Of a stretch of DNA of 64,000 bases, positions 16,142 to 35,180 are shown piece by piece. The DNA is from Waddliaceae bacterium (lineage in GTDB: Bacteria; Chlamydiota; Chlamydiia; Chlamydiales; SLFE01). Within the stretch, counting starts at the first letter, position 1, and every line of letters starts with the position of its first letter. Location: NCBI GenBank assembly GCA_963771045.1, contig CAVYRW010000004.1, forward strand, positions 1,088,001-1,152,000, in the 5' to 3' direction. The notes beneath the pieces are model-generated. The model worked only from the letters and a program-made list of their open reading frames with translations. It was not told the DNA's origin and searched no databases. A program made the translations under genes and the position numbers.

Positions 16142-16538
16142 GCCAGTAGATGAAGGAGACGCGTAATGCGCCAATTTAGACTAAAAAGGGATAGGTAAAT
16201 CGTCAGCAATTCCCGCTGGAGCTGAAATCGCTGAAACAGAATTAGTTAAAACAGCCTCTTTCGTAGAATCGGTCTCTAATTTAACCGATCTTGAACTATT
16301 TTTAACCACTGACTCTTTTATCGCTCCCCTAGAGGAAACGCTTGAATCGCATTCTTTTTCCATGAAGCTTGAGTCAGAATTTCCAGCGGGAATTGCTGGT
16401 AAATCGTTAGATGGAGGATTCGCTCTTTTCTCCCATCTCTTATGTTTATAATCTAAGGTAATGTCTCAATATAAATTTATCAAATCTTAATACTAATTTG
16501 TTAAGTTGATATCAATTCATTAACAATAAGAGTATTAT

Positions 16539-17093
16539 ATGGGACAAAGATTTGAAAATATAAAAAACCTTCCTGGTCATTTTGGAGATGCTACGCTCGA
16601 TGCTGGCAAAGCCCTATGGGGCGGAGCCTGGACACCTGTAGCCGGAATAACATTGGGTCTTTGGGAAACAGCAAATAAGCAGGCCAATAAAACCTATCTC
16701 TCAGCGTCTGTTTTATCCCGGGTTTTTTCCGGAGTTATCAAGGTTATTAACCCTAAAGCAAATGTGATTGACACTGAGGATTCGGGCTGTTCATTTTTCA
16801 ACAATATTCCAGGTAAATTTTTAAATTTTGCTGTTGATTGCGCAGGTAGCGAATCATTTCTGACAAGATATGTGATTTCTCGAGGAGCTGCGACTCTCGG
16901 CGTACTTACGGCCGTTATTACAGGAATTGCGGATATGATTTTAGCGGTACCTACAACAGCCCTTGCCCTAATAACTTTTGGATGTTCTCCTAGAATCAAT
17001 AAAATCGCAGTCAATCAGCTAAGATTTCCTGAAGCCCTTCATTTCATTGGATCAGGCCTAAGGTTATTGGTGAATCCGCATCCACGTTATTAA
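16539..17093 (+). CDS. Hypothetical membrane-associated protein
   Basis: 184 aa with a long hydrophobic stretch (GAATLGVLTAVITG...ALITFG). Confidence 0.65.
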   Translation: MGQRFENIKNLPGHFGDATLDAGKALWGGAWTPVAGITLGLWETANKQANKTYLSASVLSRVFSGVIKVINPKANVIDTEDSGCSFFNNIPGKFLNFAVDCAGSESFLTRYVISRGAATLGVLTAVITGIADMILAVPTTALALITFGCSPRINKIAVNQLRFPEALHFIGSGLRLLVNPHPRY

Positions 17094-17118
17094 TTTTCAT
17101 TAATCTGAGCTAAGGACT

Positions 17119-17260
17119 ATAACCCGTGATTGTGACCTAATCTGAGGCCAATCATCTACAGCTGAAGATCATCTTTCGATAAATTTCTCCTCCGGCATGT
17201 CTTAAGACATGCCTCTCGTCAAAATTTTCGAAATGAAATTAGATTATGCGAGTACGATTA
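17119..17260. repeat. MITE/REP-like palindromic element, copy 2
   Basis: TAACCCGTGATTGTGACCTAATCTG end and GGCATGTCTTAAGACATGCC core shared with 2480-2625. Right boundary approximate. Confidence 0.6.
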
Positions 17261-17269
17261 GGAAACTTA

Positions 17270-17484
17270 ATGAAGCTGCCCGACCACTTGAGAAATGCTA
17301 CGCTCAATGCTGACAAAGCCCTATGGGCGGAGCCTGGACACCTGTAGCCGGAATAACATTGGGTCTTTGGAAAACAGCAAATAAGCAGGCCGATAAAACC
17401 TCTTTTTCACGGCGCGTTTTTCCTGAAATTTTTTAGGGGAGTTATCAAGGTTATTAACCCTAAAGTAAATGTGATTGACGCTGA
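17270..17484 (+). pseudogene. Degenerate tandem duplicate of the 5' part of the 16539-17093 gene
   Basis: Near-identical to about 16560-16777 (for example GCGGAGCCTGGACACCTGTAGCCGGAATAACATTGGGTCTTTGG) with indels. Confidence 0.8.
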
Positions 17485-17534
17485 TTTCGCAGGGAAATCG
17501 TCAAGTTTAAGAACTACCCCACGATGACGCAAAA

Positions 17535-18362
17535 TCAATGAAAATCAAGCTGATTTAGCTCATACACGGGAATTTCAGGATTAAAAAACATCGACCATTT
17601 ACTGAGATTTGACGTTGTGCGAATAAGATAATCGCCTTTAGAAAGCAATAAGCAATCCATGACAGCCTCTAAACCATGCTGGTAAGGGCTTTTAGCAGCG
17701 TAATGAAGGGGCTTGCCGTCTGTTGAGCGATTTACATTCGGAAGATAACAAACCTTTTCACCATAGGCATTTATCATATATTCAAGAAAGCTTTGCTCAT
17801 CAGTAGCCACGAATATTTTATAAGATTTTCTGGCATCATTTTGAATTACTTTATTAACTTGGTTTTTCGCCTCATCATATGGAACCGGAAACGACTCATG
17901 TTCAAACTTATCAGTTCCTCGATAATGAACGGAAATTACATAACTTCCATAAAAGTTTTCCCTTTCAAAGTCTTTTAACATATTGAGTATAAATGGCTTT
18001 ACATGTATATATTTATCAATGTAGGCCCTTGCTTGATCCCTAGTTAGTTGCCTATTAATCCAGGGCTTAGAGTGGGGGATATTCGCAAGAAGAAACACAA
18101 TTTCATCTTCAACATATCCCACTTGAACTGATTCGCAATAATACTCCCACCAGTTGTCTCCATAGTCCGGGTCATAGTAAAGCCCTTTTTTATCGAAGGC
18201 AATTTCAAAACCGGAAAAGTTTCCTTCCTCATATGAATGAATAAGGGAAAGAATTGTCATCCAACCGCTGAACATTCCAGAATTTCTTGATTGAAGAATC
18301 GCGTAATCTAATGCTTGTAAATTACTAAAAAACAACATGATAAATAGAAATAAATGTTTCAT
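17535..18362 (-). CDS. NodZ/GT23-like fucosyltransferase with signal peptide
   Basis: SGMFS, DNWWEYY, SVHYRGTDK, IFVATDE, AVMDCLLLSK, SNLS. Confidence 0.75.
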   Translation of the reverse strand: MKHLFLFIMLFFSNLQALDYAILQSRNSGMFSGWMTILSLIHSYEEGNFSGFEIAFDKKGLYYDPDYGDNWWEYYCESVQVGYVEDEIVFLLANIPHSKPWINRQLTRDQARAYIDKYIHVKPFILNMLKDFERENFYGSYVISVHYRGTDKFEHESFPVPYDEAKNQVNKVIQNDARKSYKIFVATDEQSFLEYMINAYGEKVCYLPNVNRSTDGKPLHYAAKSPYQHGLEAVMDCLLLSKGDYLIRTTSNLSKWSMFFNPEIPVYELNQLDFH

Positions 18363-18582
18363 TTACGCCTCATATTTGCTATAATTTTCTTATCTATTTT
18401 ATAAAAAAAGGAATACTATAAAAATACAAAACTTTATTTTAGCCCCTTCATCGCTAATTTTATTGTCACTCAAGTCAATCTCAGTAATAATATTATCCGT
18501 AAAGGCTCAATAATCGCCAACTTTGACATATGCATTGATGAAAAATTTAATTATCAGATTTTCAGAAACTTGTAAATTTGGA

Positions 18583-18610
18583 ACGTCTGATAATATATAT
18601 TATGTTAATT
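18583..18610 (+). other. dif-like XerC/XerD site
   Basis: ACGTCTGATAA-TATATA-TTATGTTAATT. 11-6-11 layout. Right arm matches the E. coli XerD arm TTATGTTAAAT at 10/11. Confidence 0.55.
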
Positions 18611-18821
18611 TAATCGATCTATTACAAAGGCAATGGGCACGATTTTTCTTAAATTAACAACATTGGGACCGCTCTCAAACCTTAAATATTGTATCCGTTC
18701 ACGGGGTAACTCTAGGAACGGCTACCGCCTCGCGCGCTACCCCACAAAAATAATAAAAATTTTATACGGCATAAAATAAGATTTTTATTATTATTCTGGT
18801 TGTTCAAAACCACTTTATAAC

Positions 18822-20219
18822 ATGAAGCCAACCTACGAAGAACTCTTTGAAAAGCTGAATAAAGCCTTGGAGGAAATTGAAATCCTCAAAAAGGAAAACC
18901 AGGCACTCAAGGCAAAAGTTAAGGAGCTCGAAGATAAACTCAACACCAACTCTTCGAATAGCTCTAAGCCCCCCTCGCAAGATCCTTTCAGAGCTCAAAG
19001 AAAGAAGGAACCTACGGGGCGTAAACAGGGAGCACAAAAAGGTCATAAGGGCCACCCCCGTCAACTAGTTCCAATTAATCAGGTGCAGTCGCTGCATAAC
19101 ATAAAGCCGGACACTTGTCCGAACTGCCACTCCCACTCGTTTAATTCGGAGGTGGTCAGAACGGATGTACGACAAGTAGTGGAATTACCGGACGCTCCTC
19201 CGGAAGTTACTCAATACAACATTCACACCTGTCAGTGTAGCGGATGTGGTAAGCATGTAAAGGCTGATATTCCCGAAGAAGCGCGATTTGGTTTTGGTCC
19301 CCGATTAATGGGTTTCGTCACCTCTCTTTCAGGAGAGTTTAGATTATCCAAACGTCAAGTCTGTGCTCTAATGGGCAGACTCAATATTCGGATATGTTCC
19401 GGCAGCGTGTGTAAAATCCATGTCCGAGCTAGTCAGATTTTAAAAGCACCATACGAAGAAATTAGGACACACACTCTAAATGAAGAACATATTTATGCCG
19501 ATGAAACGAGTTGGAAAACGATGTCGGAAAAGAGATGGATTTGGGTCGGAAGCGGCAAGGAAACTGTGTTTTTCGCAATCAAGGCTTCACGCAGCAACAA
19601 GGCATTCCGCGAGATCTTTGGTTCTTTCAAAGGGGGTTTAACAACCGATCGCTATAATGCCTATAATTCGCATGAAGGTCTGCGACAACTTTGCTGGTCG
19701 CATGCAGATAGAGATTTTGAAAAGATTGCAGGCAGGGATGGATTTGATAAATGGATCGGGGAACGGTTGTTAGAGTGTAAAAAGTCGATATTCAATCTTT
19801 GGCATAGCTACAAAAACGGTGAGATTGCAAGGGACGAACTGATCGAGAAGATCGAAATAGGCCCAAAAGAAGATTTGAAAGTCCTCCTCAAAGCTGGTGC
19901 AATTCACAAAGAATGTTGCAATAAAACGAGGTCGACTTGCGCTGATTTTTTTGGACGGTTCGAGATGTTATGGGTATTTGCCTATCATGAGAATATCGAA
20001 CCGACTAACAATACAGCCGAGCAACGTCTTAGAGGCGGAGTCATTTGGAGGAAGCTATGCTTTGGCTCACAATCAGAAGAAGGTGAGCGATTTGTCGAAC
20101 GGGTGTTAACAGTTGGTATGACATTGAAGTTACGTGCTCAAAATTCGTTCGATTATTTTACCGAATGTTTTAAAGCATACATTCATGGCGGACAAGCGCC
20201 GCCGATATTTTCAAAATAG
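18822..20219 (+). CDS. IS66-family transposase
   Basis: NSSNSSKPPSQD, Zn finger, ADETSW, TDRYNAY, QLCWSHADRDF, EPTNNTAEQRLR. Confidence 0.92.
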   Translation: MKPTYEELFEKLNKALEEIEILKKENQALKAKVKELEDKLNTNSSNSSKPPSQDPFRAQRKKEPTGRKQGAQKGHKGHPRQLVPINQVQSLHNIKPDTCPNCHSHSFNSEVVRTDVRQVVELPDAPPEVTQYNIHTCQCSGCGKHVKADIPEEARFGFGPRLMGFVTSLSGEFRLSKRQVCALMGRLNIRICSGSVCKIHVRASQILKAPYEEIRTHTLNEEHIYADETSWKTMSEKRWIWVGSGKETVFFAIKASRSNKAFREIFGSFKGGLTTDRYNAYNSHEGLRQLCWSHADRDFEKIAGRDGFDKWIGERLLECKKSIFNLWHSYKNGEIARDELIEKIEIGPKEDLKVLLKAGAIHKECCNKTRSTCADFFGRFEMLWVFAYHENIEPTNNTAEQRLRGGVIWRKLCFGSQSEEGERFVERVLTVGMTLKLRAQNSFDYFTECFKAYIHGGQAPPIFSK

Positions 20220-20312
20220 AAAACGGTTTCCTACGACACAAATTCACGAGGTAGTTCTCGGTTAACAAAACGTGTTAGAAGTTTACGACTCCCCCTGGGG
20301 GGGGGTACCCCC

Positions 20313-21551
20313 CAGGGAAATTGCATGAAGAAATGATTTGACATGTCAAGCCAGATTTTGAAGACTTTACCTTCTTAAAATGGAGGTATATAATGTCATC
20401 TCAAAATCTTATAAGTGAGACATCAATCATGATTAGCTTTTCCGTCCTGCCTGATCCTAGGGAATCGAGAAATCAAAAATATCCGTTATTCGATATTTTA
20501 ACTATAGCCATACTCGGGGTTCTTTGTGGTGCCGATGACTGGGTTGATGTCGCCTTATGGGGCGAATCTAACCAAGACTGGCTTAAACAGTACGGCATTG
20601 GAGAAAATGGTACTCCTTCACATGATACTTTTAGTCGTTTTTTCCGCTATGTAGACCCTGTTGCATTCGAAAAATGTTTCCTCTCTTGGACCCAGAAAAT
20701 TTCTAAAGCCGTTGAAGGTGTCATAGCTTTGGATGGAAAGACTATTTGCAATTCTAAAAGTTGCGGTACACAAGCTATTCATTTGGTAAGCGCATTCTCA
20801 GCCGAGAATGATCTTGTATTAGGGCAATTGGCCACTGAGGCCAAATCAAATGAGATAACAGCATTTCCATTATTGATTGAGATGTTGGATTTAAAAAAAG
20901 CTACTGTGACAATAGATGCAGCTGGCTGCCAAAAAACAATCGCATCTCTAATCCGCGAAAAAGGAGGCGATTACGTATTCGGACTTAAGAGGAATCAGGA
21001 AAATTTATACGCTGAAGCGGAACATTTTTTTAATCAAGCGCTTAACCTTAAGCCGGAAGAAGCTGAATGTGAATACTATATAACGGAGGAAAAATCAAGA
21101 AATCGTTTTGAGAAAAGAGAGGTGTGGGTAACATCGAATCTTGATTGGTTGCCGCAAGTGGAAGAATGGAAAGGTTTATCATCTCTGGCTTGTGTAAGGA
21201 GCACAAGGATTGTAAAAGAGAAAGAGACAGTAGAGCTAAGGTATTATATATCAAGTATAAAGGGCGATGCGGAAAGAATAGGAAAAGCCATAAGGAGTCA
21301 TTGGTCGATTGAAAACAAACTTCATTGGCAGCTTGATGTTTCTTATGGAGAAGATGGAAGCAAAGTTCGAAAAGATAATGGTGCGGAAAATTTTTCGATA
21401 ATTCGACGATCAACTTTGAATTTACTTAAAGCAGACAAGAAAACAAAAGCAGGTATCAAAAATAAGCGATCAAAAGCAGGTTGGAATAAGCAGTATATGA
21501 TAAATATTTTGACGGGAAAGTGTTAAATAATTTCTTCATGCAATTTCCCTG
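20313..21551 (+). mobile_element. ISAs1-family element
   Basis: 22-bp TIR CAGGGAAATTGCATGAAGAAAT. Duplicated palindromic target GGGGGTACCCCC (10-12 bp; homopolymer ambiguity). Confidence 0.92.
20393..21526 (+). CDS. ISAs1 transposase
   Basis: LPDPR, PSHDTF, ALDGK, KSNEITA, TIDAAGCQK, RSHWSIENKLHWQLDV. Confidence 0.95.
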   Translation: MSSQNLISETSIMISFSVLPDPRESRNQKYPLFDILTIAILGVLCGADDWVDVALWGESNQDWLKQYGIGENGTPSHDTFSRFFRYVDPVAFEKCFLSWTQKISKAVEGVIALDGKTICNSKSCGTQAIHLVSAFSAENDLVLGQLATEAKSNEITAFPLLIEMLDLKKATVTIDAAGCQKTIASLIREKGGDYVFGLKRNQENLYAEAEHFFNQALNLKPEEAECEYYITEEKSRNRFEKREVWVTSNLDWLPQVEEWKGLSSLACVRSTRIVKEKETVELRYYISSIKGDAERIGKAIRSHWSIENKLHWQLDVSYGEDGSKVRKDNGAENFSIIRRSTLNLLKADKKTKAGIKNKRSKAGWNKQYMINILTGKC

Positions 21552-21622
21552 GGGGGTACCCCCGTGAACAGATACAAAAAATACTAATATTACTCAAAGC
21601 TTTATCTTCATCTTCTTTATTT

Positions 21623-21720
21623 ATAGGGCCGGGCCGTGCATTTTGCATAACTATGTGCTATGTTAAAGCGATGAACTTGTGGGAAGATAATAGGGAAAGT
21701 TATGTACACGGCCCGGCCTC
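21623..21720. repeat. Short inverted-repeat element. The same motif recurs at 21817-21835 and 27463-27492.
   Basis: ATAGGGCCGGGCCGTGCATTTTGCATAACT ... AGTTATGTACACGGCCCGGCCTC. Confidence 0.65.
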
Positions 21721-21850
21721 TTTTCTCAATTATTTATTAAAACTCTTCTAATTTTTTTTTTAATATTCATTGAATTCATCAAACCATGTGCCTTTTGGAC
21801 CACTAGGGTGGGGAAAATTATGCGCAATGCACGGTAAATATAATTGATTT

Positions 21851-22516
21851 TCACTTTTGATACTCCGTTTCCTGAAAGAAATTCCCCATATTTGGATCGA
21901 GCTTGTCATCGTTTTTCCAAACTATATATGATTCCTGATCGTAGGCACTCCCAATTATGTATATGGCATCTCGTGAAATCTGTTCAAAATCATTCAATTG
22001 AAGACTTTCATTTTTAAGTTTTTCTCCTTCGCACAAAACAATGAGTAAATGGTAATTTGCATTAGCTACTAGGATAGTTTCATTTATTTCTTCTGTTGAC
22101 AATTTTTTTTGAAGAAAGTAGTAAACTTCTTTATCATAAAGAAAGTATTCGACAGGTGACTCTTTGACTACTTTATCATTCGGGCCATAACACACTTCCT
22201 CTGCCAAACCATAACGGTGGTTATTTTGTTCCAAAAATTTTTTTATAAATTTTGTCATTGAGTCATCAGTTGAAGGTATTAATTGCCAATATCCTTTATT
22301 GCTTGGAGTCCTCATCATAGGAGGTTGTGGAAGGATTCCTCCAGAATCGAGATTTTCAAGATAATCAATCTGAGAATCTTCTGGGAGAATTGTAAAAAAG
22401 TGTCCCTTTTTAAAATCAATTTTTTCTATAAGAAATCTTGATAATGAATTTCCCCATTCTATATGATCTTTAAAATATGGCCATGCCGTTTCGTAATTTA
22501 ATTTCCATTTTTTCAT
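21851..22516 (-). CDS. Candidate cognate immunity protein for the Rhs toxin
   Basis: ATG 4 nt after the Rhs stop. AT-rich, 221 aa. Function inferred from position only. Confidence 0.65.
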   Translation of the reverse strand: MKKWKLNYETAWPYFKDHIEWGNSLSRFLIEKIDFKKGHFFTILPEDSQIDYLENLDSGGILPQPPMMRTPSNKGYWQLIPSTDDSMTKFIKKFLEQNNHRYGLAEEVCYGPNDKVVKESPVEYFLYDKEVYYFLQKKLSTEEINETILVANANYHLLIVLCEGEKLKNESLQLNDFEQISRDAIYIIGSAYDQESYIVWKNDDKLDPNMGNFFQETEYQK

Positions 22517-22520
22517 GAAT

Positions 22521-25500
22521 TTACTTTCCTTTTTTCTTATTTTTACCTTTATTTTTTGGCTCACATCTTCCATCCGGATACAAGCGATAGCCTTTATGCT
22601 TTTTTTCTGGTTTATAATCCCAATGGGGACCTATTGGGGGTTTATGATCAAAATCGGGATTCAACTTTTCATCTCCTTTCACCCAGTTTCCTTTACCACT
22701 AGAAGGAGAACCCCTACCTTTCCATTCAAATCCATAATCAGCGGGTCCCTCGGGATTCCAACCAAAATGATCCCATTCATAAGGCACACCATCTCGAAAA
22801 CTTTGATTCATCCAATTTTCAATGTAGGGAACGGATTCATAGAATAGATATGTCACCGTAGCAGCTAGGACGGCTGAAGCGACTGTTTCGATGGCCGCTG
22901 CTCCAAAAATAAGCTCTAAGGCAATTGGAACAACTATAACAAAAGCGCCGTCGGGATCGGTGTATTTGAAGGGATTATTGAAGAGGTATTGGTAGAGGTT
23001 CGTTGAATCTTTGATTCCTGCAGGATCTGTTGTCATCCAACGAGCTAGGGCAGGATTGTAATATCTCTTCCCGAAATTGATGAGGCCTGTTTCAAAGTCA
23101 CACCTTTTTCCGGCATAGCGGTAAGGATTGGACCGAGTTTCTGAAGAGAGGGTTTCTCCAAAAGCAGAATAAGTGTAAGAGTGCGTTATTTTTTCGGCGG
23201 CAACATCAACAAGCTTTTTGACGTTTCCGAGGCAATCTAAAATGGGAGCAAAGGCTCTTCCCGAGAGCTCAATGGCAACAGGTTGGGAAGGCAGGCCAAA
23301 AACTCTTAAATCCTTTAGCTCCCCTTCATAGCAGGCAAGCTCTTGATCGTCATCGTAGAGATAATGCTCTTTTCTTTTTTCCGGAGAGCAGCAAGCGGTT
23401 GTTTTCGAGACCCTTCTGCCCAGGGGGTCATAGGAATAAGTGATTTTGAAGGCGTTATTTTGCGCTTCGACAAGACGATTCAAAGGGTCGTACTTAAAAG
23501 AAAATTGTCCATCCGAGGTGAGATTGCCTCTTCGGTCATAAGACTTGGAGACAAGTTCGTTTAAATCATTATAAGCAAAATACTCATCGTCTTTTTGAAG
23601 ACGGTTAAAGAGGGTATCAAAACAGTATGTATGGTCATTTTCGGATGTGAGCTGAGAAAGGGCGTCATAATCATAAAAGTTTTCCCTGTCATTTAGAGTT
23701 GATTTTATGAGATTGCCAAGTTCATTAAAGACGCAATTTTGCGAGATAAAAGGAGATGATACCGACAGTTTTCTTCCCATCTCATCATAGCTCGTGTAGA
23801 TCGTTCCCAAACCGCCGATCATAGACTCTTCTAGAAGATTTCCCGAAAGATCATACGAGTTAAAAGTATGTTCGTAGAGCAAATCATGATCGGTGTTATA
23901 CCTGGCCACGCGGCGAGGGTAAAGAGCGTCGTAGCTATATTCAATAACTCCTTCCGGAAAACGGATGAAAAGGGGACGATCCAGATGATCGTATTCTTTT
24001 TCTAAAACGAGCCCCTGAGCGCTTGTTTCTTTGAGAATATTGCCAAAGGGATCATATTCGCGAGTTATTGATAAAGACTGATTCACATCAGCCGCTTCTA
24101 AAACATCTCCTTTTTTGTTATAGCAGTAGCATAGATTAAGGGAACCATCAGATGAGCTCAGAGTTTCCATGAAACCCAAAGGGTTGTAGCCAAAGTAAAG
24201 TTTTATTCCATCGGGAAGAGTTTTTTCGGCTATTTTTCCCATAGGCGTATAAGCATATTCTACCCGCCTCTTACCAGATGCGGTCTCTGACTTAAGCCGG
24301 TTCATGCAGTCATAAGAGAAGGTAATTGTTTGGCTTCCATCGTTTAGAGAGACTAAATTTCCACATGCGTCGTAGGTTCTTTGACGGCTAAAAAGGGTTT
24401 CTCCCTTTTGATCGCAAGCCTCCTCTTTAACAATTCGGTCAAAGGAATCGTACATTGTCTGTTTTGAGAGTCCTTTTGGATCGATGGACACTGTTTTTAA
24501 GACGTAATGGCCCGAGGCTGTTTTCCATCTATCGTCATAGGCAGTGCTCGTATGGTTTCCTAGAGCATCTGTATGCATTGTTACGCGGTTAAAGGCATCG
24601 TAGGTAAAGGTCTCTTTTGCTTGGTTTTTAATAAGAGCGGATCGATTGTCATCGGTATCATATTCGTAGCCTATTTCAAATAAGATTTCTCCATCTGCAT
24701 CTGTTTTTGTTTCTTTTATGGTGCGGTCTAAAAGATCGTATTCATAGTGTTGAAAAAGCGGGCCTTTTTTCAAAGTTGCCAGTCTGCCAAGAGAGTCATA
24801 AATATACTCAAGGGTTCTTCCTTCCTTGACCTCCTTGATCTTTCTTCCGGCTCCATCGTAAGAATAATGGGTTGTGCAGCCATCTTTATCGGTTTCTTGT
24901 ATGAGATGAAAGGCGTTGTAGATAAAGGACTCTGAGGCAAGCTCTTCCCCTGAAGAAGAATAAATGGTCTTGGTAAGCACCCTTCCCAAAACATCTCGTT
25001 CGTAGACTATTTCTGTCCCTTCTTGATTCACATGTCTTGTGAGATGTCCCTGTTTTGAATAAGTGAAAGATTCCCGAGTCCCGTCGGGATAAATGATCTC
25101 TAAAGGAGACCCATACAGATTCGAACGAGTCCTTGTAGTATTTCCGTTAGGATCGGTTTTTGCGATCTCTCTTCCCAAGGCGTCGTATTCAATGGCAACT
25201 TGGACTTTTCGTTCCTGAGTTGAAGGGTATTCGACTAAAGCGGGTTTCAAAACGACGGGATCATTTTTGATGAGGGTAGCGTTTTGTTCATTGATGATTT
25301 TTTTGACAATAAGATCATTCAGATCATATTCATACTGAAAAGATTTGTATCCCCCTTCAGAGCCATAGTGCTTTTCAGTGATTAAGCGGCTTCTTAAATC
25401 ATAGGTGAACTCTTTTTTAAGTCTTCCGGAAAAAGATACCGAAGAGGTCAAGAGGCTGCCGTCATTATAAGTGTAGAGGGCCTTTTGACCTAGAGGATTG

Positions 25501-27293
25501 GTCTCGGATAACAGATTTCCTCTTTGATCATACTCTTTAAAGAGAGAATAGGCAAAGTTTCCGGCAGCATCATAAATATCTTCTTGGGAAACATTTCCAT
25601 ATTGGTCATAGCTTAAATGAGTTTTCTTAAGAGGCTTTTCTTCACCTCCCTCGCAATAACATTCTTGAATCCACTCGGGCATGTGAAGAAATGGGGTCTC
25701 TTGACGCAGAATATAGCGAGTGATTCTTCTTTGAGCCGTTCCCGAATCGCCGTCATCAACAATTTTTTGTATCAAATTCAGACTGTCGTCATATTCCCAA
25801 AACTCTCTTTGAAAAATTATTTCGCCATCGAGAGACATTTTTGATAGAGGGAGATTTGTTCCGGAAACATATTCAAAGACAACAGCTTTACCCTCCTCTT
25901 CTTCTTCTCGTAAAAGGAGGTTTCTTCCATCTTGAGAAAACTCTCGCCTTATAGAAAAAGTGATTGTCTCTCCGGTTATAGTTTCCAGAGTGGGATTGCC
26001 GAAGGCATCGTATTCATAATGTTTCTGACATAAGAGCTTATCGCCTTCAAAAAATTGCAAAGAAGAGAGCCTTTGATTTGAATCCCACTCAAACACTTTG
26101 ATTTTTTTGAGCGTCCCTTCGGGGGAAATTGTTTTGACGGATTGAAGGAGGAGGTTGTCGGTATATTCATAGACAGTTTTTGTTCCACTAGCGTGTTTAA
26201 ACGTTGTCTGTCCTCCCTTTTTTCGCGGCAGGTAGCTTATTTCTCCAATCATTCCCGAAGGAAAAGCAATATGGCTAGTTCTGTAGTGGGGGGCATTATC
26301 AGGAGATTCCACAGCTTCATATGAACAATGAAAAAATCCCTTCGGCGTTTTATATTCTGTGAGTGAAATGATGTCGGAATAAGAAATTGTCTCTTTGCCG
26401 GAGAGTGGGCTTTCCACAGATGTTAAAAGCCGAGGAGAGTTTATTGAATATTCAAACTTAGCTCCACCGTCTTTTCCCTTTCCTTCGGCTACTTGGTATC
26501 CATATTTGTATGTGGCTTTAGTAAAATTAGAACCAATAAATTCTTGTTCATTTAAATACGGAAACCCATGGACTTCTAAAGAAGAATAGATCGTACTTTC
26601 ATTGGAGTCCATGCTTTCAATTGATGTCAGGGCTTTGTGGTCATAGTGATACTTAAGGACTTTTCCATGGGGGAGAATTTCTTTTTCGAGTAAAAACGTC
26701 AATCCATTTTTATGTTCATAAACCCTGATTGTTCCATCGGGAAAATCAACTCGAAATTTATGATTCTCTGTTCTAATGCGGATATTGCGGACATCGTGCT
26801 TTCCGCTCGGCATTCCGCCAACAAAATTGCTGATTCCATAAAAACAACCGGCAAGTTTGTAACCTTCTTCTGTTTTCTCAAATTCCCATACTGCGCCATT
26901 CTGGTCGACGAGCTGAAGGATATTATTTGGCAAAACGACAAGTTTCAGATGAGGCAAACAGACAAAACCACGATAATGACCCAAAAGATTTGAATATCGA
27001 TAGAATTTATCGAGACCGGGATTGGAATGACAGGATAAGGGAAGAAAAGGAGCTATATATGTTCTATCCAGCCGGATATCCTGAGCCCCTTTGACGATCA
27101 GATCTGTTTTCTTAAGGCAAACCTGACCGCTTAGAGGGTTGATCCCCCCCCCAATTAACCAATCTTCATCGATATTCAAGTCGGAGACTTCATAGGAACT
27201 AGAAGGGATCAAGTTTTCCATTTTGTCTTCAGCAAATAAGGAAAAGTAAAATCCGAGCAGTAAAACGAAAATTGCTCTCACAACTCCCTCCAA
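22521..27293 (-). CDS. Rhs/YD-repeat polymorphic toxin with Ntox37-like C-terminal domain
   Basis: Signal-like N-terminus, many YDxxG repeats, core end RYYNPALARWMTTDP...NPFKYTDPDG. Tip FEWKGRGSPSSGKGNW...PDFDHKPPIGPHWDY...YRLYPDG. Confidence 0.9.
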   Translation of the reverse strand: MEGVVRAIFVLLLGFYFSLFAEDKMENLIPSSSYEVSDLNIDEDWLIGGGINPLSGQVCLKKTDLIVKGAQDIRLDRTYIAPFLPLSCHSNPGLDKFYRYSNLLGHYRGFVCLPHLKLVVLPNNILQLVDQNGAVWEFEKTEEGYKLAGCFYGISNFVGGMPSGKHDVRNIRIRTENHKFRVDFPDGTIRVYEHKNGLTFLLEKEILPHGKVLKYHYDHKALTSIESMDSNESTIYSSLEVHGFPYLNEQEFIGSNFTKATYKYGYQVAEGKGKDGGAKFEYSINSPRLLTSVESPLSGKETISYSDIISLTEYKTPKGFFHCSYEAVESPDNAPHYRTSHIAFPSGMIGEISYLPRKKGGQTTFKHASGTKTVYEYTDNLLLQSVKTISPEGTLKKIKVFEWDSNQRLSSLQFFEGDKLLCQKHYEYDAFGNPTLETITGETITFSIRREFSQDGRNLLLREEEEEGKAVVFEYVSGTNLPLSKMSLDGEIIFQREFWEYDDSLNLIQKIVDDGDSGTAQRRITRYILRQETPFLHMPEWIQECYCEGGEEKPLKKTHLSYDQYGNVSQEDIYDAAGNFAYSLFKEYDQRGNLLSETNPLGQKALYTYNDGSLLTSSVSFSGRLKKEFTYDLRSRLITEKHYGSEGGYKSFQYEYDLNDLIVKKIINEQNATLIKNDPVVLKPALVEYPSTQERKVQVAIEYDALGREIAKTDPNGNTTRTRSNLYGSPLEIIYPDGTRESFTYSKQGHLTRHVNQEGTEIVYERDVLGRVLTKTIYSSSGEELASESFIYNAFHLIQETDKDGCTTHYSYDGAGRKIKEVKEGRTLEYIYDSLGRLATLKKGPLFQHYEYDLLDRTIKETKTDADGEILFEIGYEYDTDDNRSALIKNQAKETFTYDAFNRVTMHTDALGNHTSTAYDDRWKTASGHYVLKTVSIDPKGLSKQTMYDSFDRIVKEEACDQKGETLFSRQRTYDACGNLVSLNDGSQTITFSYDCMNRLKSETASGKRRVEYAYTPMGKIAEKTLPDGIKLYFGYNPLGFMETLSSSDGSLNLCYCYNKKGDVLEAADVNQSLSITREYDPFGNILKETSAQGLVLEKEYDHLDRPLFIRFPEGVIEYSYDALYPRRVARYNTDHDLLYEHTFNSYDLSGNLLEESMIGGLGTIYTSYDEMGRKLSVSSPFISQNCVFNELGNLIKSTLNDRENFYDYDALSQLTSENDHTYCFDTLFNRLQKDDEYFAYNDLNELVSKSYDRRGNLTSDGQFSFKYDPLNRLVEAQNNAFKITYSYDPLGRRVSKTTACCSPEKRKEHYLYDDDQELACYEGELKDLRVFGLPSQPVAIELSGRAFAPILDCLGNVKKLVDVAAEKITHSYTYSAFGETLSSETRSNPYRYAGKRCDFETGLINFGKRYYNPALARWMTTDPAGIKDSTNLYQYLFNNPFKYTDPDGAFVIVVPIALELIFGAAAIETVASAVLAATVTYLFYESVPYIENWMNQSFRDGVPYEWDHFGWNPEGPADYGFEWKGRGSPSSGKGNWVKGDEKLNPDFDHKPPIGPHWDYKPEKKHKGYRLYPDGRCEPKNKGKNKKKGK

Positions 27294-27867
27294 AAAAAAT
27301 ATTTTAATCGAGATTTTATTATATGAAAAAGATTTAAAGCAAGATTATTTTAACGTCTACTCCTCGCAAAGAGCGAGGGGTTTTGCCACGGTACTTGTAC
27401 ATAATGTCGCGGTAGCAAGCGGCATCTTCAAAACGATGACCTTCTCGGAAGGTAATAGAAAAAGTTATGCACAATGCACAGCACGACCCTATCACTATCA
27501 CCGACCCTATCATGATATCGATTTGTCAATGACAAAAAACCAGATATTGTAAATAAACAAAGAATTTCGCGATAACCCCTTTGCGGCCCCTTCACAATCA
27601 AATCGAGAAATTAATAGTGAAAAAGAATGAAGATGAGTTAAAATGGATTTCGGTGTAGTAAATATAATATGATTTTCGGTTTACTCTATTATTTTCTTAA
27701 AAAAACTTTTAACATGCAAGATGCTGCAAAAAATGGCCTTGTTGCGTAAGTTCTAATTAGAGGAGATTCTTAGCCCTCTTTTCGTCCAATTCCTTTTTTC
27801 TTAGGCCATATATCCTACTGGCATCCCGGTTGCAGTCATCATATTCAAAATAAATCCTTTTAATTGG

Positions 27868-27937
27868 AGCTCATTGCTCTGGGCATTTTCTGAACGGCTA
27901 AACAATGTATCCCCAAAAATGCCCAGAGCAATGAGCT
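27868..27937. repeat. 70-bp element with a perfect 22-bp inverted repeat
   Basis: AGCTCATTGCTCTGGGCATTTT at 27868-27889 and AAAATGCCCAGAGCAATGAGCT at 27916-27937. Confidence 0.85.
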
Positions 27938-28569
27938 GTATTGGGATAATCGTGATTTGCTCACCATGTCAGTCGATGTAGTCCTGTACGATCTTACAAC
28001 TCTACGTTTTGAAAGCACTAGAGAAGACTTAGGACAACTTCGCCGTTTTGGATATTCCAAAGAGATGCGTAGCGACTGTACCCAGGTTATACTGGGTCTG
28101 CTAGTTGATACTGACGGTATTCCTCTTGGTTTCGAAGTTTATCCCGGTAACACCTTTGAGGGGGCTACTCTGGTTGATATTGTCCAGAGGATGCGCGCCA
28201 AATTCAAAGTGCGAAGATTTATTTTTGTAGCTGATCGAGGACTTTTCTCTGCAAAAAATCTGGAGCATATCCGAACTCAGTGCGGGCACGAAGCGGTTGG
28301 AGAGTTCATCGTGGGCATAAAGCTTGGACAGATCAAACAGCGACATGATGAATTTTACGATCGTGGCCGCTTTACTAAAGTAAACGATGATCTGGAATTG
28401 TATGAAACAAAACTTGGTGAAGATCGTTGTATCATTACTTGGTCTCGTCAACGAGCTGAACGCGACAGAAAAACCCGAGAAGATATTCTGACAAAGCTTA
28501 CAAAGAAAATCGCCAAAAAAAAGAAACCCACTCCCAAGGATTTTGTAACAAACAAAAACTACACCAAGT
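27938..28569 (+). pseudogene. IS1634-family transposase, central fragment (5'-truncated, cut by IS4)
   Basis: VLYDLTTLRFES, FGYSKEMRSDCTQV, YPGNTFE, VADRG. Confidence 0.85.
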
Positions 28570-29471
28570 CACTAGTGTCCGGAATTTAAATCAAATAGTG
28601 TTAATTGGTTAGAACCCTGTAACTCTCTTGATTTTTTTACGGAATACGTAAGCGCCTCACTTAGAGCTGTTTTCTCAAAGACAGTGAGACTCAAAATTTG
28701 TAGAATTTTGTAGAGGCTGGCCTCAATTTTCAACTCCTTTTTAATAATGGCAACAAGCACATAAACGGAGATAGCTATCCAAATCTGACTCTTTACTGCA
28801 TTCTCTGAAGTACCGAAGAACGCTTTGATACGCAAATGTTGTTTGATCCATTTGAAAAATAATTCAACTTGCCACCGGCATCGATAAAGTTCAGCGACTG
28901 TTAGGGCAGGAAGAGTAAGGTTATTTGTCAAAAACACAAAGGTCTTCTCGGTATCGGTGTCGTAGTACTTGATACGGCGCAATTTTTCAGGATAGTGTTG
29001 GGCTGATTGGGCACCAGTTAGCACAACTGTTTGGTCACACCGAAGACCCGTATTATTGTCTACTGCGGCAGAGTACAGACGCCGGAACTTGAGGTTAGAT
29101 TTCGCCCGGATAACAAAAAAGGAGCTTGCTAAATTGAGTTCGTAAAGCCGAGAGAAATCCAGGTATCCGCGATCCATTATATAAAAAGCGCCCGGCTCAG
29201 GAATTAACAAATCAAGTGCATTTACGTCATGAAGTTTGCCGTCAGATATATGGATGAAGCTCGGGATATTGCCACGCAGATCCAATAAAGTATGCAATTT
29301 CACTGCAGCCTTAGTTTGACGAAAATGTGCCCAGGGAAAGACGGATAGACACAGATCAATAGTTGATGCATCTAGTGCGTACACAGTGCTATTGAGTTCA
29401 ACCCCAAAATCCTCGTTTACATACAATCCGCGAGCTTTGCTAATCAACGATTGAGCAAAGTTTGGTAAGCG

Positions 29472-31049
29472 TCATTTAAGCCCATCTGGAAAAATTATTC
29501 CAGATTCTTTAGAGATCGAGAGCCCCTTTGCCTTAGCCCAGCGATCGGGGAGAAGTTCGTACAGCTTGTTTGCGGGGTGATCCATTAAACTGCGCATGAC
29601 ATCTTCAAGATATTCGTGGGGATTAATGCCAAGTTCACGGCATGTTTGAATAAGGGAGTATATGATTCCTGCTGCTTCCCCTCCATTAGCGCTTCCAAAA
29701 AAGAGCCAGTTTTTACGACCGATTGCTAAGGGACGTATTGCTCGTTCGGCAACATTGTTATCAAGATGGGCAAAAGGATTTTTAATATAGTTTTTAAGAT
29801 GAGGAATAAGGCCGCAAAAATACTTCAACGCTGCCATTAGTTTTGATTTTGGGAGAATTTTATGGTCTTGAAGCTTTTTTTTCGCCTGTTTGATCATTTC
29901 GCTGATGATCGGCTCCTCATCTTCCCGCCGTATTTTTAATCGTTCTTCGGGGGATTTTCCCCAAGCGATTTTTTCATACTTGTAAAGCTCCTGAATTTGG
30001 GCTAAAAACCAATCTTTAAACTCTTTATCGCCGCTTTGGATATCGAAAAATTTACGACGAATGTGCGCCATGCAGGGGCACCAGGTATACTGCTTCATAT
30101 TTGCCAGCGTTTCATAAGCTCCATATTTATCGGAATGAAGAGTCCCCTTGAAACCTTTTAAAAGTTCTTTCGCGTTGCAATGCTTGCGGTTTTCGAAAAA
30201 TTGATAAATCCGATAAGGCGGATCTTTTGTTTTTCCTCCAGCGAGCGCCCATACATAAGACTCTTTAGTTTTTCCTCTTCCGGGAGCCAGCATCTTGACA
30301 GGAGTTTCATCCGCAAAAGCATTTTCACTTTCAAGAATTTTTGTTTTCATTAATGTATACAAGGGTTTTAAGGCGAGACCCGCTTTTACAACCCATGTGC
30401 AAAGGTTTTGCCGGCTTATCCTAACATCTTCCCTTGCACGCATTTCACTTTGACGGTATAGAGGCAAGTGGTCGGCGTATTTCTTAACCATAATGTCTGC
30501 AAGCAGGCTTTCATCCGCAAAACAACGATCTAATAATGAACCCGGAAGCGGCGCTATTGAAACTCCATGCTCAGGACGATCCGGAGAAACGTACTTGGGA
30601 CGAACATACTTTTTAAGGTAATAGCTGGTGGGCTTGCAAGCAAGCTTATAGGTTACCTCTTCCCCCATTTTTACGAGAGGTTTTCCTGTTTCAGGGCATA
30701 CTTTCTCCTCTTCGGGAATGTCGACAGGAATAACTTCCGTTGGGATATCTTCGGGTAGAGTGATTTTGTCTTTTCCGTTTCTTTTCAGCTTTCGTCTTGT
30801 ATGGGAAGAAACCGTTTTTTTCTCTTCTTTTTCTTCTCCTTGAAGATTACCGAAGCCATCGAATTCCAGTTGATTTTCATTCTGGGGGATGATCTTTTCA
30901 GAGCGTTTGTCAAATATCTGGCGCTTGAACCATTCCAGTTGTTCTTTGAAGTAATTGATCTCATTTTTGAGTTCTGAATTTTCTTTCTGAAGCTGTTCTA
31001 TAGAAGGGTTTTGTATCGCTTTTATAGTCCATATTTTACCAAAAAACAC
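29472..31049 (-). CDS. tnpC: IS66 transposase TnpC
   Basis: KYADHLPLYRQ, ADETPV, CMAHIRRKF, DNNVAERAIR...GRKNWLF. Confidence 0.95.
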   Translation of the reverse strand: MFFGKIWTIKAIQNPSIEQLQKENSELKNEINYFKEQLEWFKRQIFDKRSEKIIPQNENQLEFDGFGNLQGEEKEEKKTVSSHTRRKLKRNGKDKITLPEDIPTEVIPVDIPEEEKVCPETGKPLVKMGEEVTYKLACKPTSYYLKKYVRPKYVSPDRPEHGVSIAPLPGSLLDRCFADESLLADIMVKKYADHLPLYRQSEMRAREDVRISRQNLCTWVVKAGLALKPLYTLMKTKILESENAFADETPVKMLAPGRGKTKESYVWALAGGKTKDPPYRIYQFFENRKHCNAKELLKGFKGTLHSDKYGAYETLANMKQYTWCPCMAHIRRKFFDIQSGDKEFKDWFLAQIQELYKYEKIAWGKSPEERLKIRREDEEPIISEMIKQAKKKLQDHKILPKSKLMAALKYFCGLIPHLKNYIKNPFAHLDNNVAERAIRPLAIGRKNWLFFGSANGGEAAGIIYSLIQTCRELGINPHEYLEDVMRSLMDHPANKLYELLPDRWAKAKGLSISKESGIIFPDGLK

Positions 31050-31069
31050 TCTCTAAAAAAAGGAAATAT

Positions 31070-31429
31070 TTAAGTTTTTTCGAGAAAAAATCGGGTGCTG
31101 ATCCGCTTGGGAATAATGCCTTCAAGCATCATGAAAAAATCCCTCCTGTTCATGGCAATTTTTCCGGAAGCTTTAAGAGGAAAGCGTCCTTTTTCAAGAC
31201 GCTTATACCAGATCGCAAGACCGTCATTATCCCAGTAGAGCACTTTCATTTTATTGCGCTGGCGATTGAGAAAAACAAAGAAAGCACCTGATGTCGGCTC
31301 TTCCAAGGATTGCTCTACGATAGCGCATAAACCCTCGAAACTCTTTCTCATGTTAACCGGCTCGCCGAAGACAAAAATACGAGCATTTCCTGTGATTGTC
31401 AGCATAGGTTTCCTAAAAGTTCCAGGCAT
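31070..31429 (-). CDS. tnpB: IS66 accessory protein TnpB
   Basis: NMRKSFEGL, KVLYWDNDG, KRLEKGRF. Confidence 0.92.
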   Translation of the reverse strand: MPGTFRKPMLTITGNARIFVFGEPVNMRKSFEGLCAIVEQSLEEPTSGAFFVFLNRQRNKMKVLYWDNDGLAIWYKRLEKGRFPLKASGKIAMNRRDFFMMLEGIIPKRISTRFFLEKT

Positions 31430-31716
31430 CGAGCAAGCGTAGATTGGTCAAAGTTAGTTGAAAGATGGATGCGGCCTGCAGCCGTTTCGATAATGATTCC
31501 GGCATCGGGTCGACTCTCATCCTTTAATTCCAAGAATCCTTTCGGAGATGAATGTTTCTCGCTTTGAGATCCCAAGAACCGCACCTTCCAATAAACGGTG
31601 CGAGAATAGACGAAATTATTTTCTCTGCTCCACTGAGCTAAAGACTTACCGCTAGCCTGCCAATCTTGGATTCTATCTTTCCAAACCAAAGCTGTATCCG
31701 ATAGTTCATTGTGCAT
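31399..31716 (-). CDS. tnpA: IS66 accessory protein TnpA
   Basis: WKDRIQDWQASGKSLAQWSRE HTH-like start; position upstream of tnpB. Confidence 0.85.
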   Translation of the reverse strand: MHNELSDTALVWKDRIQDWQASGKSLAQWSRENNFVYSRTVYWKVRFLGSQSEKHSSPKGFLELKDESRPDAGIIIETAAGRIHLSTNFDQSTLARCLELLGNLC

Positions 31717-32368
31717 ATCTTTCCTCCTCTTCTTTATCGAGTTTTGAGGAAAGAATAACCGGAAAGAAAATCAGAAAGAAGATGGGTTTAATTGACGCTT
31801 ACAAAGTTTGCGTAGATGCGCCAATCACGACGCTCATTAGCGTCTGCGAGTGTACTACGTGAAACATCTGAACGGATTCCCATATGATAGAGTTTATTCC
31901 GTTGAGCGCGGAGACAAGCTTCGATGTCGCGCAAACTTTCCCTGAAAGTGAGTTGAGCAAAGGCCATACACCTGTACTGATCTTGGCAGGTAAAAGTTTT
32001 AACATGTTTGTTACCCTCATATCTCTCAACGCATCGCCGGAAAGTATGCTGGGGAAGAAAGTTTAACACTTGAACGAAGATGATTTTGCCTGAATACATA
32101 TGTCGGCTCCTTTTGCACACATGGTTGCATCAGATGCTGACATTAGCGGTGATACAGTTCAACGGTTGAAGTCGCTAACAGGTCTTAAACGCATTTAAAT
32201 CACTGGTATTTATACTGATAAGAAAGGTTTTTATGAAATTTTCCGGACACTAGTGATCATCGCTAATAAATTTAATCCCAGCATAATAAAATGTATCAAA
32301 GTGCAGACCTCTCCTTTCTTTTTGAGGCCCCATCTGTATACAATCAGAAACCAGATTCCAAGGTAAAT

Positions 32369-33005
32369 CCCGAGTTTGACAGCTGATTTTCCCATGGCAC
32401 TGTGAATCAATAACATGAGAAAATTAAAAGTGCGTGTGCCACTACATTTTGAGAGGATGAACGGATTTAGATAGCTGAAGTGTGCTTCAACAATTTTGGA
32501 GGAATGGGTGCTCCAATGGCTTTGAGCAGCAGAGCGGCATTGCCTTTAATGTCACTCCTGACCCAAACGAGATTTTCTTTGAGCTTGACAGGCATGGCTC
32601 TCACTTCTGCTAATTCTTGCATTGCTTCCAGCACGGTTAGGGGTCTCCTGTCGATCTGCCCCTCACTAGTCGCTTTGCTTTCCAATATTACCTCTTTTTC
32701 TCGCAGCAATTTGGTCATTTGCGCTTCGCAAAAGTAGGCGAGAAAGCACATGGTGAGATGCCCTCTGATGCGAGCGTCATCCCAATGATAGATGGGACGT
32801 GTCTTTAGTGTTCCCTTGATTTCCCCAAACGCATCTTCTATTAACCAAAGGTGCTTGTAGGCCACAAGGACCTCATTTGCGTCCATTTGATCAGGTGACA
32901 CATTAGTAATGACCCCGAAGAACCCATCCTTATAAGCTTCCTGAGCAATTGCCTTTTCGTTGAGCTGGGGAGAGCCATTTTGTAAACCGACAATATACTT
33001 GGTGT
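32369..33005 (-). pseudogene. IS1634-family element, 3' fragment with right end, inverted relative to 27938-28569
   Basis: YKHLWLIEDAFGEIK...RPIYHW...IRGHLTMCFLAY. Probable end CCCGAGTTTGACAG at 32369. Shares the 9-bp TSD ACACCAAGT (28561-28569; reverse complement at 32997-33005). Confidence 0.85.
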
Positions 33006-33619
33006 CACTAGTGTCCGGAAAATTTCATAAAAACCTTTCTTATCAGTATAAATACCAGTGATTTAAATGCGTTTAAGACCTGTTAGCGACTTCAACCGTT
33101 GAACTGTATCACCGCTAATGTCAGCATCTGATGCAACCATGTGTGCAAAAGGAGCCGACATATGTATTCAGGCAAAATCATCTTCGCTCAAGTGTTAAAC
33201 TTTCTTCCCCAGCATACTTTCCGGCGATGCGTTGAGAGATATGAGGGTAACAAACATGTTAAAACTTTTACCTGCCAAGATCAGTACAGGTGTATGGCCT
33301 TTGCTCAACTCACTTTCAGGGAAAGTTTGCGCGACATCGAAGCTTGTCTCCGCGCTCAACGGAATAAACTCTATCATATGGGAATCCGTTCAGATGTTTC
33401 ACGTAGTACACTCGCAGACGCTAATGAGCGTCGTGATTGGCGCATCTACGCAAACTTTGCTCAATCGTTGATTAGCAAAGCTCGCGGATTGTATGTAAAC
33501 GAGGATTTTGGGGTTGAACTCAATAGCACTGTGTACGCACTAGATGCATCAACTATTGATCTGTGTCTATCCGTCTTTCCCTGGGCACATTTTCGTCAAA
33601 CTAAGGCTGCAGTGAAATT
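33006..33619 (+). mobile_element. IS4-family element, copy B, truncated by IS256
   Basis: CACTAGTGTCCGGAA end. ORF 33141-33629 nearly identical to copy A and lacks the IS66 insert. Confidence 0.9.
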
Positions 33620-35017
33620 GAGGGTGTAAAATAAACTGTGTAAACTCATTTACAGCCCCATCGCTTTTTTCATCCTGTCGTCAAACAGAATTGAAAACTG
33701 AGATATTGCTGATATCCAGCCTTTGATAGGCTTTGTCCATTTCTCGGATAAGCTCGAGACAGTTAAAAATAGCAATTTGAAAAGAGAGTCGTCTGTTGGA
33801 AAGACAGAACGGCTTTTTGTAGTCTTTCTAAACTGCCTGTGGAGTGATTCTACGGCATTTGTAGTATAAATAATACGTCGAATTTCTTCGGGGTATTTAA
33901 AAAAGGTTCGGATATTATCCCAGTTGTCTGCCCAGGGATTGACGGCTAAGGGGTATCTTGTTGCCCATTTTTCCTGCAGAACAAGCAGGTTTTCCTCAGC
34001 CAAAATTTCTGTTTCAGCCCGATAGATGTTTTTCAGATCCGACACAAATTCCTTCGAATGCTTATGAGGAATGTATTTAAACGAATTTCGGATCAAATGG
34101 ATGACGCATAACTGAATCTCAGTCTCGGGAAACACGGCATTAATTGCTTCCGGCATTCCTTTTAAGCCATCAACACAGGCAATTAAAACGTCGTCAACGC
34201 CTCTATTTTTAAGCTCTGTGAAAACTCGTAACCAAAATTTGGCTCCTTCGTTTTCACCGATCCATAAACCTAAAACATCCTTTTGCCCCTCAAGATCGAT
34301 TCCCAGGCAGGTATACACAGCTTTTGTAACCACCTTTCCATCTTCACGAACCTTATAATGAATAGCATCAAAATAGGTAATAGCGTAGATCTTTTCAAGC
34401 GGTCTTGATTGCCACTCTCTTGCGACTTCTAAAGCCTTTTCCGTGATATGGGATACGGCCGTAGGGGATATTTCAGCACCATATATTTCCTGAACATGAG
34501 CCTGTATATCCCGGGTGCTCATTCCCTTTGCATACATGGAGAGGATTTTCTGATCGAATGAGGTAATATTTCGTTGCCGTTTCTTGACGATTTTTGGCTC
34601 AAAATCACCATTCCTATCTCGGGGCACCTCTAAATCGAGAGGACCGTAGGAACTTTGGACAGATTTTGAAAGCTTGCCATTGCGGCTGTTGCCGGTGTGA
34701 TGGCCTTCAGGTGAGTATTTGGAATAGCCGATATGCTCTTCCATTTCCTTCTCAAGGAGTTGTTCTACCATACCACCCAACAACCTTTGTAAAAGGCCGT
34801 TTTTGCCACATAAGTCGTCCATGGTTTCGCATTTCGACAACTCTTTATCGAGATCGATTTTTAGTTTTGAGAATTTCATAAGTTGTTCCTGTGTAAATTA
34901 AAATTAAAAATTTGTCGCCCCTCCCCCTGCAGGGGGAGGAACCTCCTTCTACTTGTTTACAAGGTATTTACTATAATACACTTGCAACTTAATTTACACA
35001 GTTCAGATTACACTACC
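33620..35017 (-). mobile_element. IS256-family element, copy 2 (transposase 33650-34879)
   Basis: Near-identical to 12702-14099 (three aa differences seen). No flanking TSD. Confidence 0.95.
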
Positions 35018-35019
35018 CC

Positions 35020-35133
35020 TTCAAAATAGAAAACGGTTTCCTACGACACAAATTCACGAGGTAGTTCTCGGTTAACAAAACGTGTTAGAAGTTTACGACT
35101 CCCCCTGGGGGGGGTACCCCCGTGAACAGATAC
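35020..35133 (+). mobile_element. Right-end remnant of a second IS66 (ISBst12-like) copy
   Basis: Matches 20210-20312 plus 21564-21575, without the ISAs1 insertion. Confidence 0.9.
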
Positions 35134-35180
35134 TAAATATTTACTTCTAACCTAAAGACACATCTGTTAATTCTTAAGGA

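Follow-up and report, generated by a model that had tools for sequence, protein, structure and literature searches.

A probable IS66-bounded insertion with a predicted Rhs toxin-immunity pair in a chlamydia, and the matching empty site in a sister species

Features of the locus and its ends

The window analysed here is a 64,000-bp stretch (contig C4, positions 1088001-1152000) of the genome of a Waddliaceae bacterium, G000, whose assembly comprises 2.57 Mb in 5 contigs, is 90.6% complete and is rich in near-identical copies of insertion sequences (IS). Within the window lies a 16.4-kb block bounded on both sides by ends of the same IS66-family element, which has a single open reading frame (ORF). 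The block contains a gene for an Rhs protein, a candidate immunity gene and several other IS, whole or in pieces (Table 1). IS-derived DNA accounts for 10,165 of its 16,443 bp (about 62%; boundaries are approximate). An ORF and profile survey identified the Rhs gene and the gene downstream of it as the only intact non-IS ORFs, in agreement with the initial annotation, which had described the toxin pair as the sole intact cargo. We consider it very likely that the block represents an acquired insertion with IS66 boundaries, and the corresponding site of a sister species is empty.

Table 1. Coordinates of the features of the block (positions in the window)
Feature	Coordinates	Strand	Evidence or remark
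Left 8-bp target duplication TAAATATT	18683..18690	+	single copy at the G001 empty site
IS66 copy 1, single-ORF, ISBst12-like	18691..21575	+	PF03050 E 8e-30; NF033517 268 bits vs cut-off 180
ISAs1-family IS	20313..21551	+	NF033564 380 bits; ends and flanks
Element of ~90 bp with inverted arms, genus-level repeat, downstream of immunity gene	21624..21716	.	pattern search
Likely immunity gene, family without name	21851..22573	-	240 aa as longest ORF; start probably near 22516 (221-240 aa)
Intact Rhs, 1,586 aa	22521..27281	-	PF05593, TIGR01643, TIGR03696 84.6 bits
Degenerate uvrB 3' tail, fused to second repeat arm (to ~27491)	27357..27443	-	nucleotide alignment
IS5/IS903-type right-end fragment and 22-bp fold-back	27740..27937	-	nucleotide comparison
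IS1634 transposase, 5'-truncated, middle part	27938..28569	+	NF033559
IS4-family element, copy X, interrupted by IS66B	28570..32255	-	NF033592, DUF4372
IS66B, canonical three-ORF IS66, own 8-bp duplication CAAACTTT	29465..31802	-	PF03050, PF05717
Same IS1634, 3' part and right end, inverted relative to first part	32369..33005	-	profile and nucleotide comparison
IS4 copy Y, 5' part, cut by IS256	33006..33619	+	inverted duplicate of X, 99.8-100%
IS256-family element	33620..35017	-	NF033543
Second IS66 copy, last 114 bp, right terminal repeat intact	35020..35133	+	adjoins IS256
Right copy of TAAATATT	35134..35141	+	DUF2254 gene next, from 35181

The left end of the first IS66 copy, GTATCCGTTCACGGGG, starts at 18691 immediately after the 8-mer TAAATATT. 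The right end of that same copy (21575) is flanked by AAAAAATA and not by TAAATATT, which recurs after a second right end, at 35133, co-oriented with the one at 21575. All three observations had been made in the initial annotation and were found again here. That annotation had also relied on IS66 elements generating 8-bp target duplications. Every end of the single-ORF IS66 in G000 was located and the flanks were compared all against all, including one variant end on contig C1. Ten of the 14 left ends match a right end through an 8-bp (in one case 9-bp) duplication, the 18691/35133 pair among them and nine other copies besides; the 8-bp duplication is thus demonstrated for the element studied here. 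Among the ten, only the 18691/35133 pair passes over a nearer right end. The remaining ends (4/14 left and 6/16 right) have lost their matching flank, which indicates that IS66-bounded rearrangement is common in G000.

G000 contains 242 occurrences of the AT-rich 8-mer TAAATATT, or 4.7e-5 per position. When the 18691/35133 pair is left out, 5 orphan left ends and 7 orphan right ends make up 35 possible pairs, over which approximately 0.002-0.005 chance flank matches are expected, orientation and proximity not yet being required.

A site without the block in a sister species

The initial annotation had called for an empty site joining 18690 to 35142 in a relative, and such a site exists in a congener, G001. 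On either side of the block, contig C5 of G001 and the window are collinear (86.2% identity over 16,166 bp; 84.1% over 2,576 bp ending at 35134), the leftward collinearity running at 84-85% identity. An intergenic region of this contig aligns to 18575-18680 and then, with one TAAATATT at the join, to the sequence that starts at 35134, and neither Rhs nor IS is found between the joined flanks. The alignment to 18575-18680 has a local score of 78, a value reached by none of 500 shuffles (mean 24.8, maximum 38). In the right flank, the DUF2254 gene is present in 3 of 30 relatives. The IS66 itself was not found in G001 or in a further genome, G002 (88% and 82% complete, respectively), and its near-identical copies are spread across G000. 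Consequently, the IS66 ends appear to stem from a recent resident expansion.

These joined flanks also bear on whether the Rhs gene might be native to the locus, with 8-mers that match by chance. The AT-richness and frequency of TAAATATT would lend themselves to such a reading, but the small number of chance matches expected argues against it and the G001 flanks, joined without Rhs, contradict it; we regard it as extremely unlikely.

A NodZ-like fucosyltransferase gene (17535-18362) and its surroundings (17100-18575) are missing at the matching G001 site. This region is a separate gain or loss next to the block.

Insertion sequences within the block

Copy 1 of the IS66 displays the traits of the ISBst12 group: one ORF in 1.63 kb, a DDE_Tnp_IS66 domain (PF03050) and no tnpA or tnpB. 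Its transposase gene (18822-20219, 465 aa) is intact and encodes a protein 100% identical to those of 10 other full-length copies in G000, and the terminal inverted repeats are 16 bp long with one mismatch. The ISAs1-family element sits in a GGGGTACCCC palindrome, 24 bp inside the right tip of copy 1. ISAs1 ends were observed within the GGGGTACCCC of IS66 right ends at four places in G000 (window 20301-20312; C4 103770, 817727 and 1520048), which suggests a target preference.

On the other side of the cargo, the IS903-type fragment (185 bp) is 100% identical to positions 3499-3683 of G001 contig C19 and has no other copy in G000. The IS1634 is split by IS4, with a 9-bp duplication at 28561-28569 and 32997-33005, and the inverted IS4 pair X/Y encloses DNA that is itself inverted. 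None of the IS4, IS1634 and IS903-type pieces has a nucleotide copy outside the block in G000. The two flanks of the IS256 do not match, one being IS4 sequence and the other the IS66 tail, and none of the IS256 ends of G000 supplied a partner for them; we infer from this a deletion that ended at this IS256. Adjacent deletions by IS elements in general have been described (PMC9330008). Two extra bases (35018-35019) stand between the IS256 and the IS66 tail. An inversion between the opposed IS256 copies (12702-14099 and 33620-35017) was considered and ruled out, as the first copy retains its own duplication.

The Rhs protein and its candidate immunity gene

RHS/YD repeats and an Rhs-associated core are both detected above cut-off in the Rhs protein (PF05593, TIGR01643, TIGR03696). 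Its named homologues come from Chlamydiae, consistent with the chlamydial host proposed initially. A hydrophobic stretch at the N-terminus, judged by eye, suggests a putative signal peptide. The tip, encoded at approximately 22521-22800, is Ntox37-like (PF15535, 22.5 bits, E 1.8e-4), and its structure model is a beta-meander with a mean predicted local distance difference test score (pLDDT) of 66.8. The top fold match of this model, a weak one, is the E3-type CdiA tip 4ntq, a ribosomal RNase.

The protein encoded downstream matches no Pfam family at cut-off and no NCBIfam model, Imm32 included among the families not matched. No PDB match was obtained by sequence, Foldseek or VIA (best Z 4.3; model pLDDT 88.9), an outcome that does not demonstrate a new fold. 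A profile of this family matches 29 of 200 scored genomes of the order, and G000 by itself has 13 whole or partial matches. The 20 best loci comprise 5 from genomes that seeded the profile and 15 non-seed loci. Among the latter, a strong Ntox37-like tip lies directly upstream on the same strand at 9, a weak one at 1, and none within 1.5 kb at 5. This pairing at 9 of 15 non-seed loci supports the reading, drawn from gene neighbourhood, that the downstream gene is likely the cognate immunity gene of the Rhs tip. Elsewhere in G000 (C1, 40755-43068), only an immunity gene is kept where G001 has its Rhs array, and it is split by this same IS66 with its own 8-bp duplication.

Origin of the cargo

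A tree was built from 16 Rhs cores, namely the 7 copies of the genus and the best match of each of 9 other genomes, other matches being excluded. The window Rhs falls within a genus clade of seven (100/100) as sister to the remaining six (97/97). Its trunk shares 51-57% identity with every other copy from the genus, and the five full-length copies of G000 and G001 are 73-99% identical among themselves; the trunk is not a recent duplicate of any resident Rhs copy. The last bin of the gene is 88% identical to the resident copy at 1.198 Mb of C4, and nucleotide identity to an Rhs paralogue rises from 55-69% to 79-91% near 22800. Given a trunk at 51-57% versus a tip at 88%, the trunk appears to come from a third lineage of the genus whereas the tip and immunity gene are of resident type. 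Such a mosaic would represent the usual tip exchange of polymorphic toxins.

The best N-terminal homologue of the Rhs among 5.8 billion proteins is 47% identical, and metagenome and genome scans returned only relatives at 22-31%; these collections thus yielded neither a closer relative nor the donor. No second copy of the unit was found in G000 or in 5 genomes of the family, and a plasmid search with 27700-29464 gave 7 IS4 matches (64-75%).

The degenerate uvrB tail upstream of the Rhs gene is identical at 69/87 nt to G000 and 71/91 to G001 (78-79%), and at 53/80 to the genome G003 (66%). In G022, a member of another family, an Rhs has a different uvrB fragment (L098:9816-9956) about 300 bp upstream. 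The inverted-arm repeat (21624-21716 and 27422-27491) flanks the Rhs-immunity unit on both sides. Matches to the repeat pattern lie at Rhs loci in G000 (5/5) and G001 (3/4), 16 in G002 are scattered, and reversed-pattern controls gave 0. Many of the arms come after TA, as would be expected of the ends of IS630-type miniature inverted-repeat transposable elements (MITEs). These repeats possibly mark an older, inner mobile unit.

Route of arrival

The initial annotation had proposed either a composite transposon or a circle recombined into a resident IS. The insertion itself is supported by the G001 empty site. The two routes are inseparable at this locus: the duplication ends up outside the outer ends whether the block came by composite transposition, by circle recombination or as a replicative cointegrate, and the deciding flank, to the left of copy 2, has been deleted.

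With moderate confidence, we favour a circle that recombined into a resident IS66 copy, because unpaired ends are common, identical targets are many and an IS256-ended deletion could either remove a replicon or make a circle. A donor chlamydia from the same genus-level gene pool would have supplied circular DNA with the predicted Rhs toxin-immunity pair and one IS66. This circle would then have recombined into a resident IS66 lying between two TAAATATT repeats, the crossover taking place through IS66 homology over the whole 1.6 kb or over the 102 bp common to the two tails. Before or after arrival, the IS256-ended deletion would have removed the remainder of IS4 copy Y together with most of the second IS66, possibly along with a replicon, and it could itself have made the circle. 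The toxin tip and immunity gene would have been exchanged with a resident-type array at the end of the Rhs core, where the switch lies near 22800. The Rhs protein would be exported by Sec and would release a small all-beta tip that likely cuts the RNA of rival bacteria, the downstream protein acting to neutralise it.

A true composite transposition is an alternative that we retain tentatively. Two directly oriented IS66 copies would have surrounded the cargo on the donor, and the transposase would have acted on their outer ends, creating the TAAATATT duplication at the target; use of the outer right end may have been favoured by the ISAs1 that lies within the inner one. The intact outer ends with a perfect 8-bp duplication and the intact transposase speak for this route, for which the 114 bp of copy 2 would be enough if the terminal repeat suffices. 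However, the donor would have had to receive an IS66 on each side of the cargo, the unit is single-copy in G000, and the resulting structure is the same as that of the circle route and hence does not single it out. Of the two flanking IS copies that define a composite transposon, the first is complete save for the ISAs1 in its tip and the second is the 114-bp remnant. The mobile cassette of the initial annotation is retained here as one past arrival, with a single copy in G000 and a second IS66 reduced to 114 bp.

A cointegrate would have arisen if the IS66 on a donor replicon had moved into TAAATATT by replicative transposition, joining that replicon to the chromosome, and the IS256 had later trimmed it. 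This would produce the same end structure, and the inverted IS4 pair around an inverted segment shows that duplicative rearrangements have occurred in this DNA. It is nonetheless unlikely: an element of the ISBst12 group is described as copy-and-paste with no cointegrates reported (PMC12898284), and no other cointegrate-like pair was found among the IS66 ends.

We judge a misjoin of the assembly to be very unlikely. In this scenario a separate 14.8-kb circle (20210-35019) would have been threaded into a plain IS66 via the 102-bp common tail. No public contig crosses any block junction, and genes on contig C1 are split as if by assembly error (uvrB in two frames). Yet the block lies inside a 2.29-Mb contig and its internal repeats do not exceed 2.3 kb, such a circle would be without a replication gene and, even so, it would be the very intermediate of the circle route. 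On C1, aconitase and other genes also appear split, which suggests more sequence errors there than on C4. A joint between 20209 and 35020 in contigs of sequencing run X1 was considered as an empty site and ruled out as a collapsed IS66 repeat, because its loose ends match the flanks of other IS66 sites. Runs X1 and X2 do not count as independent of the assembly, which may have been built from them.

Several observations weigh against an acquired insertion that came in as a circle with a toxin pair. The empty site belongs to another species, in which the 8-mer is preceded by 18 additional bases and the NodZ-like gene is absent. Copy 2 has lost its left end, in front of which the circle route would place AAAAAATA, and AAAAAATA precedes none of the IS66 left ends in G000; G000 therefore has no donor scar, and none was recognized among its IS66 or IS256 ends. 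The block is without plasmid genes, and the annotated contigs C1 and C3 have chromosome-type genes (mreC, sdh, trpS, uvrB, thyX and similar), which rules them out as a plasmid origin; the ends of C1 and C4 are connected by contig C43 of G001. None of the assembled contigs from three sequencing runs (shares 0.14, 0.08 and 0.00) bridges a block junction. As for the toxin, the Ntox37 match of the tip falls under the Pfam cut-off (22.5 vs 27.8 bits), and the fold match to the E3-type CdiA tip is weak, with a Foldseek E of 2.7 and, level with unrelated entries, a Z of 4.3 (4ntq_A, root-mean-square deviation 4.1, 67 aligned). Lastly, with G001 and G002 incomplete, the Rhs could be an old paralogue of the G000 lineage moved from elsewhere on its own chromosome.

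Comparison with known systems

IS1021-flanked aux8 and aux12 clusters of the type VI secretion system, the latter with an RHS toxin, have been described in Ralstonia (PMC11481896). As in those clusters, a predicted toxin-immunity pair lies here between directly related IS ends, and it may likewise have moved as a unit. Unlike them, the present block is bounded by a single-ORF IS66, its second IS is a 114-bp stub, its host is chlamydial, and both a target duplication and an empty site are documented; its Rhs appears to be of the Sec type and no vgrG is found in the block. The closest description of the IS itself is that of ISDge4, an ISBst12-group element of Deinococcus with a single 449-aa ORF, 8-bp direct repeats and imperfect terminal inverted repeats (PMC12898284). 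The present IS66 likewise has a single ORF (465 aa) with PF03050, imperfect terminal repeats and 8-bp duplications, but its ends begin with GTAT and bracket 14 kb of other DNA. Ntox37 toxins are described as all-beta, listed in chlamydiae and associated with RHS repeats, type II secretion and Imm32 (PMC3482391). The window Rhs resembles them in its RHS repeats, core, modelled all-beta tip, small downstream gene and tip exchange, and departs from them in that the downstream gene matches no Pfam Imm family and the tip scores under the Pfam cut-off.

IS expansion in chlamydiae has been described (PMC9723776). In the literature searched, which covers few subscription papers, we found no report of an IS66-bounded or a chlamydial mobile Rhs cassette: the kind of element is known, the host group is new. 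As a transposition event the insertion is ordinary, its interest residing in the host group and in the unnamed immunity family. It also makes a small predicted toxin-immunity pair available for laboratory testing in E. coli.

Other Rhs arrays

Related Rhs genes were detected in 26 of the 31 genomes searched, with upstream neighbours that differ among the relatives read. A second Rhs-immunity array of G000 (C4, 1195251-1205545; array proper 1195758-1205036) lies about 72 kb downstream of the block and is enclosed by direct repeats of 509 bp that derive from an IS91-like transposase. It is 94-98% identical to the region of the native array on G001 contig C43, where the background identity is 84-90%. 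The genes flanking it share 96.8% identity with G001 but 87.5% with the G000 copy on C1, which suggests interspecies transfer; this array was likely acquired recently from a G001-like species. A traC fragment is located 0.6 kb upstream of the array.

The arrival of an IS-bounded, predicted toxin-immunity pair suggests that host-dwelling chlamydiae trade weapons against one another. Rivalry and gene exchange among chlamydiae are also indicated by the 13 immunity-family matches in G000 and by its Rhs arrays, of which two or more are IS-bounded and seem to have arrived recently. As a speculative extension, which we put forward with some reserve, environmental chlamydiae of this genus that share a host may use Rhs RNases, exported by Sec, against one another and may pass whole toxin-immunity cassettes between species by way of any IS available (IS66 for the block, IS91-like repeats for the second array), protection being conferred by an unnamed immunity family with no clear solved fold; the 16.4-kb unit, its transposase and outer ends intact, could still jump.

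A third Rhs locus of G000 (C3, 24891-44129; 19 kb with an Rhs array and an RND pump) is 99.4-99.8% identical to contig C44 of G001, a near-identity that could reflect recent transfer or mixed binning. On contig C24 of G003, direct repeats of a housekeeping operon (L096:8852-11122 and 16977-19247; 2,271 bp, 99.96% identical) enclose an Rhs and a small downstream gene, a layout as expected from circle integration by homology, or from an assembly artefact. Outside the block, the window also contains short dispersed repeats of two MITE-like families with many copies in G000, one at 16204-16398 (about 195 bp) and the other at 17117-17234 and 2509-2596 (about 115 bp).

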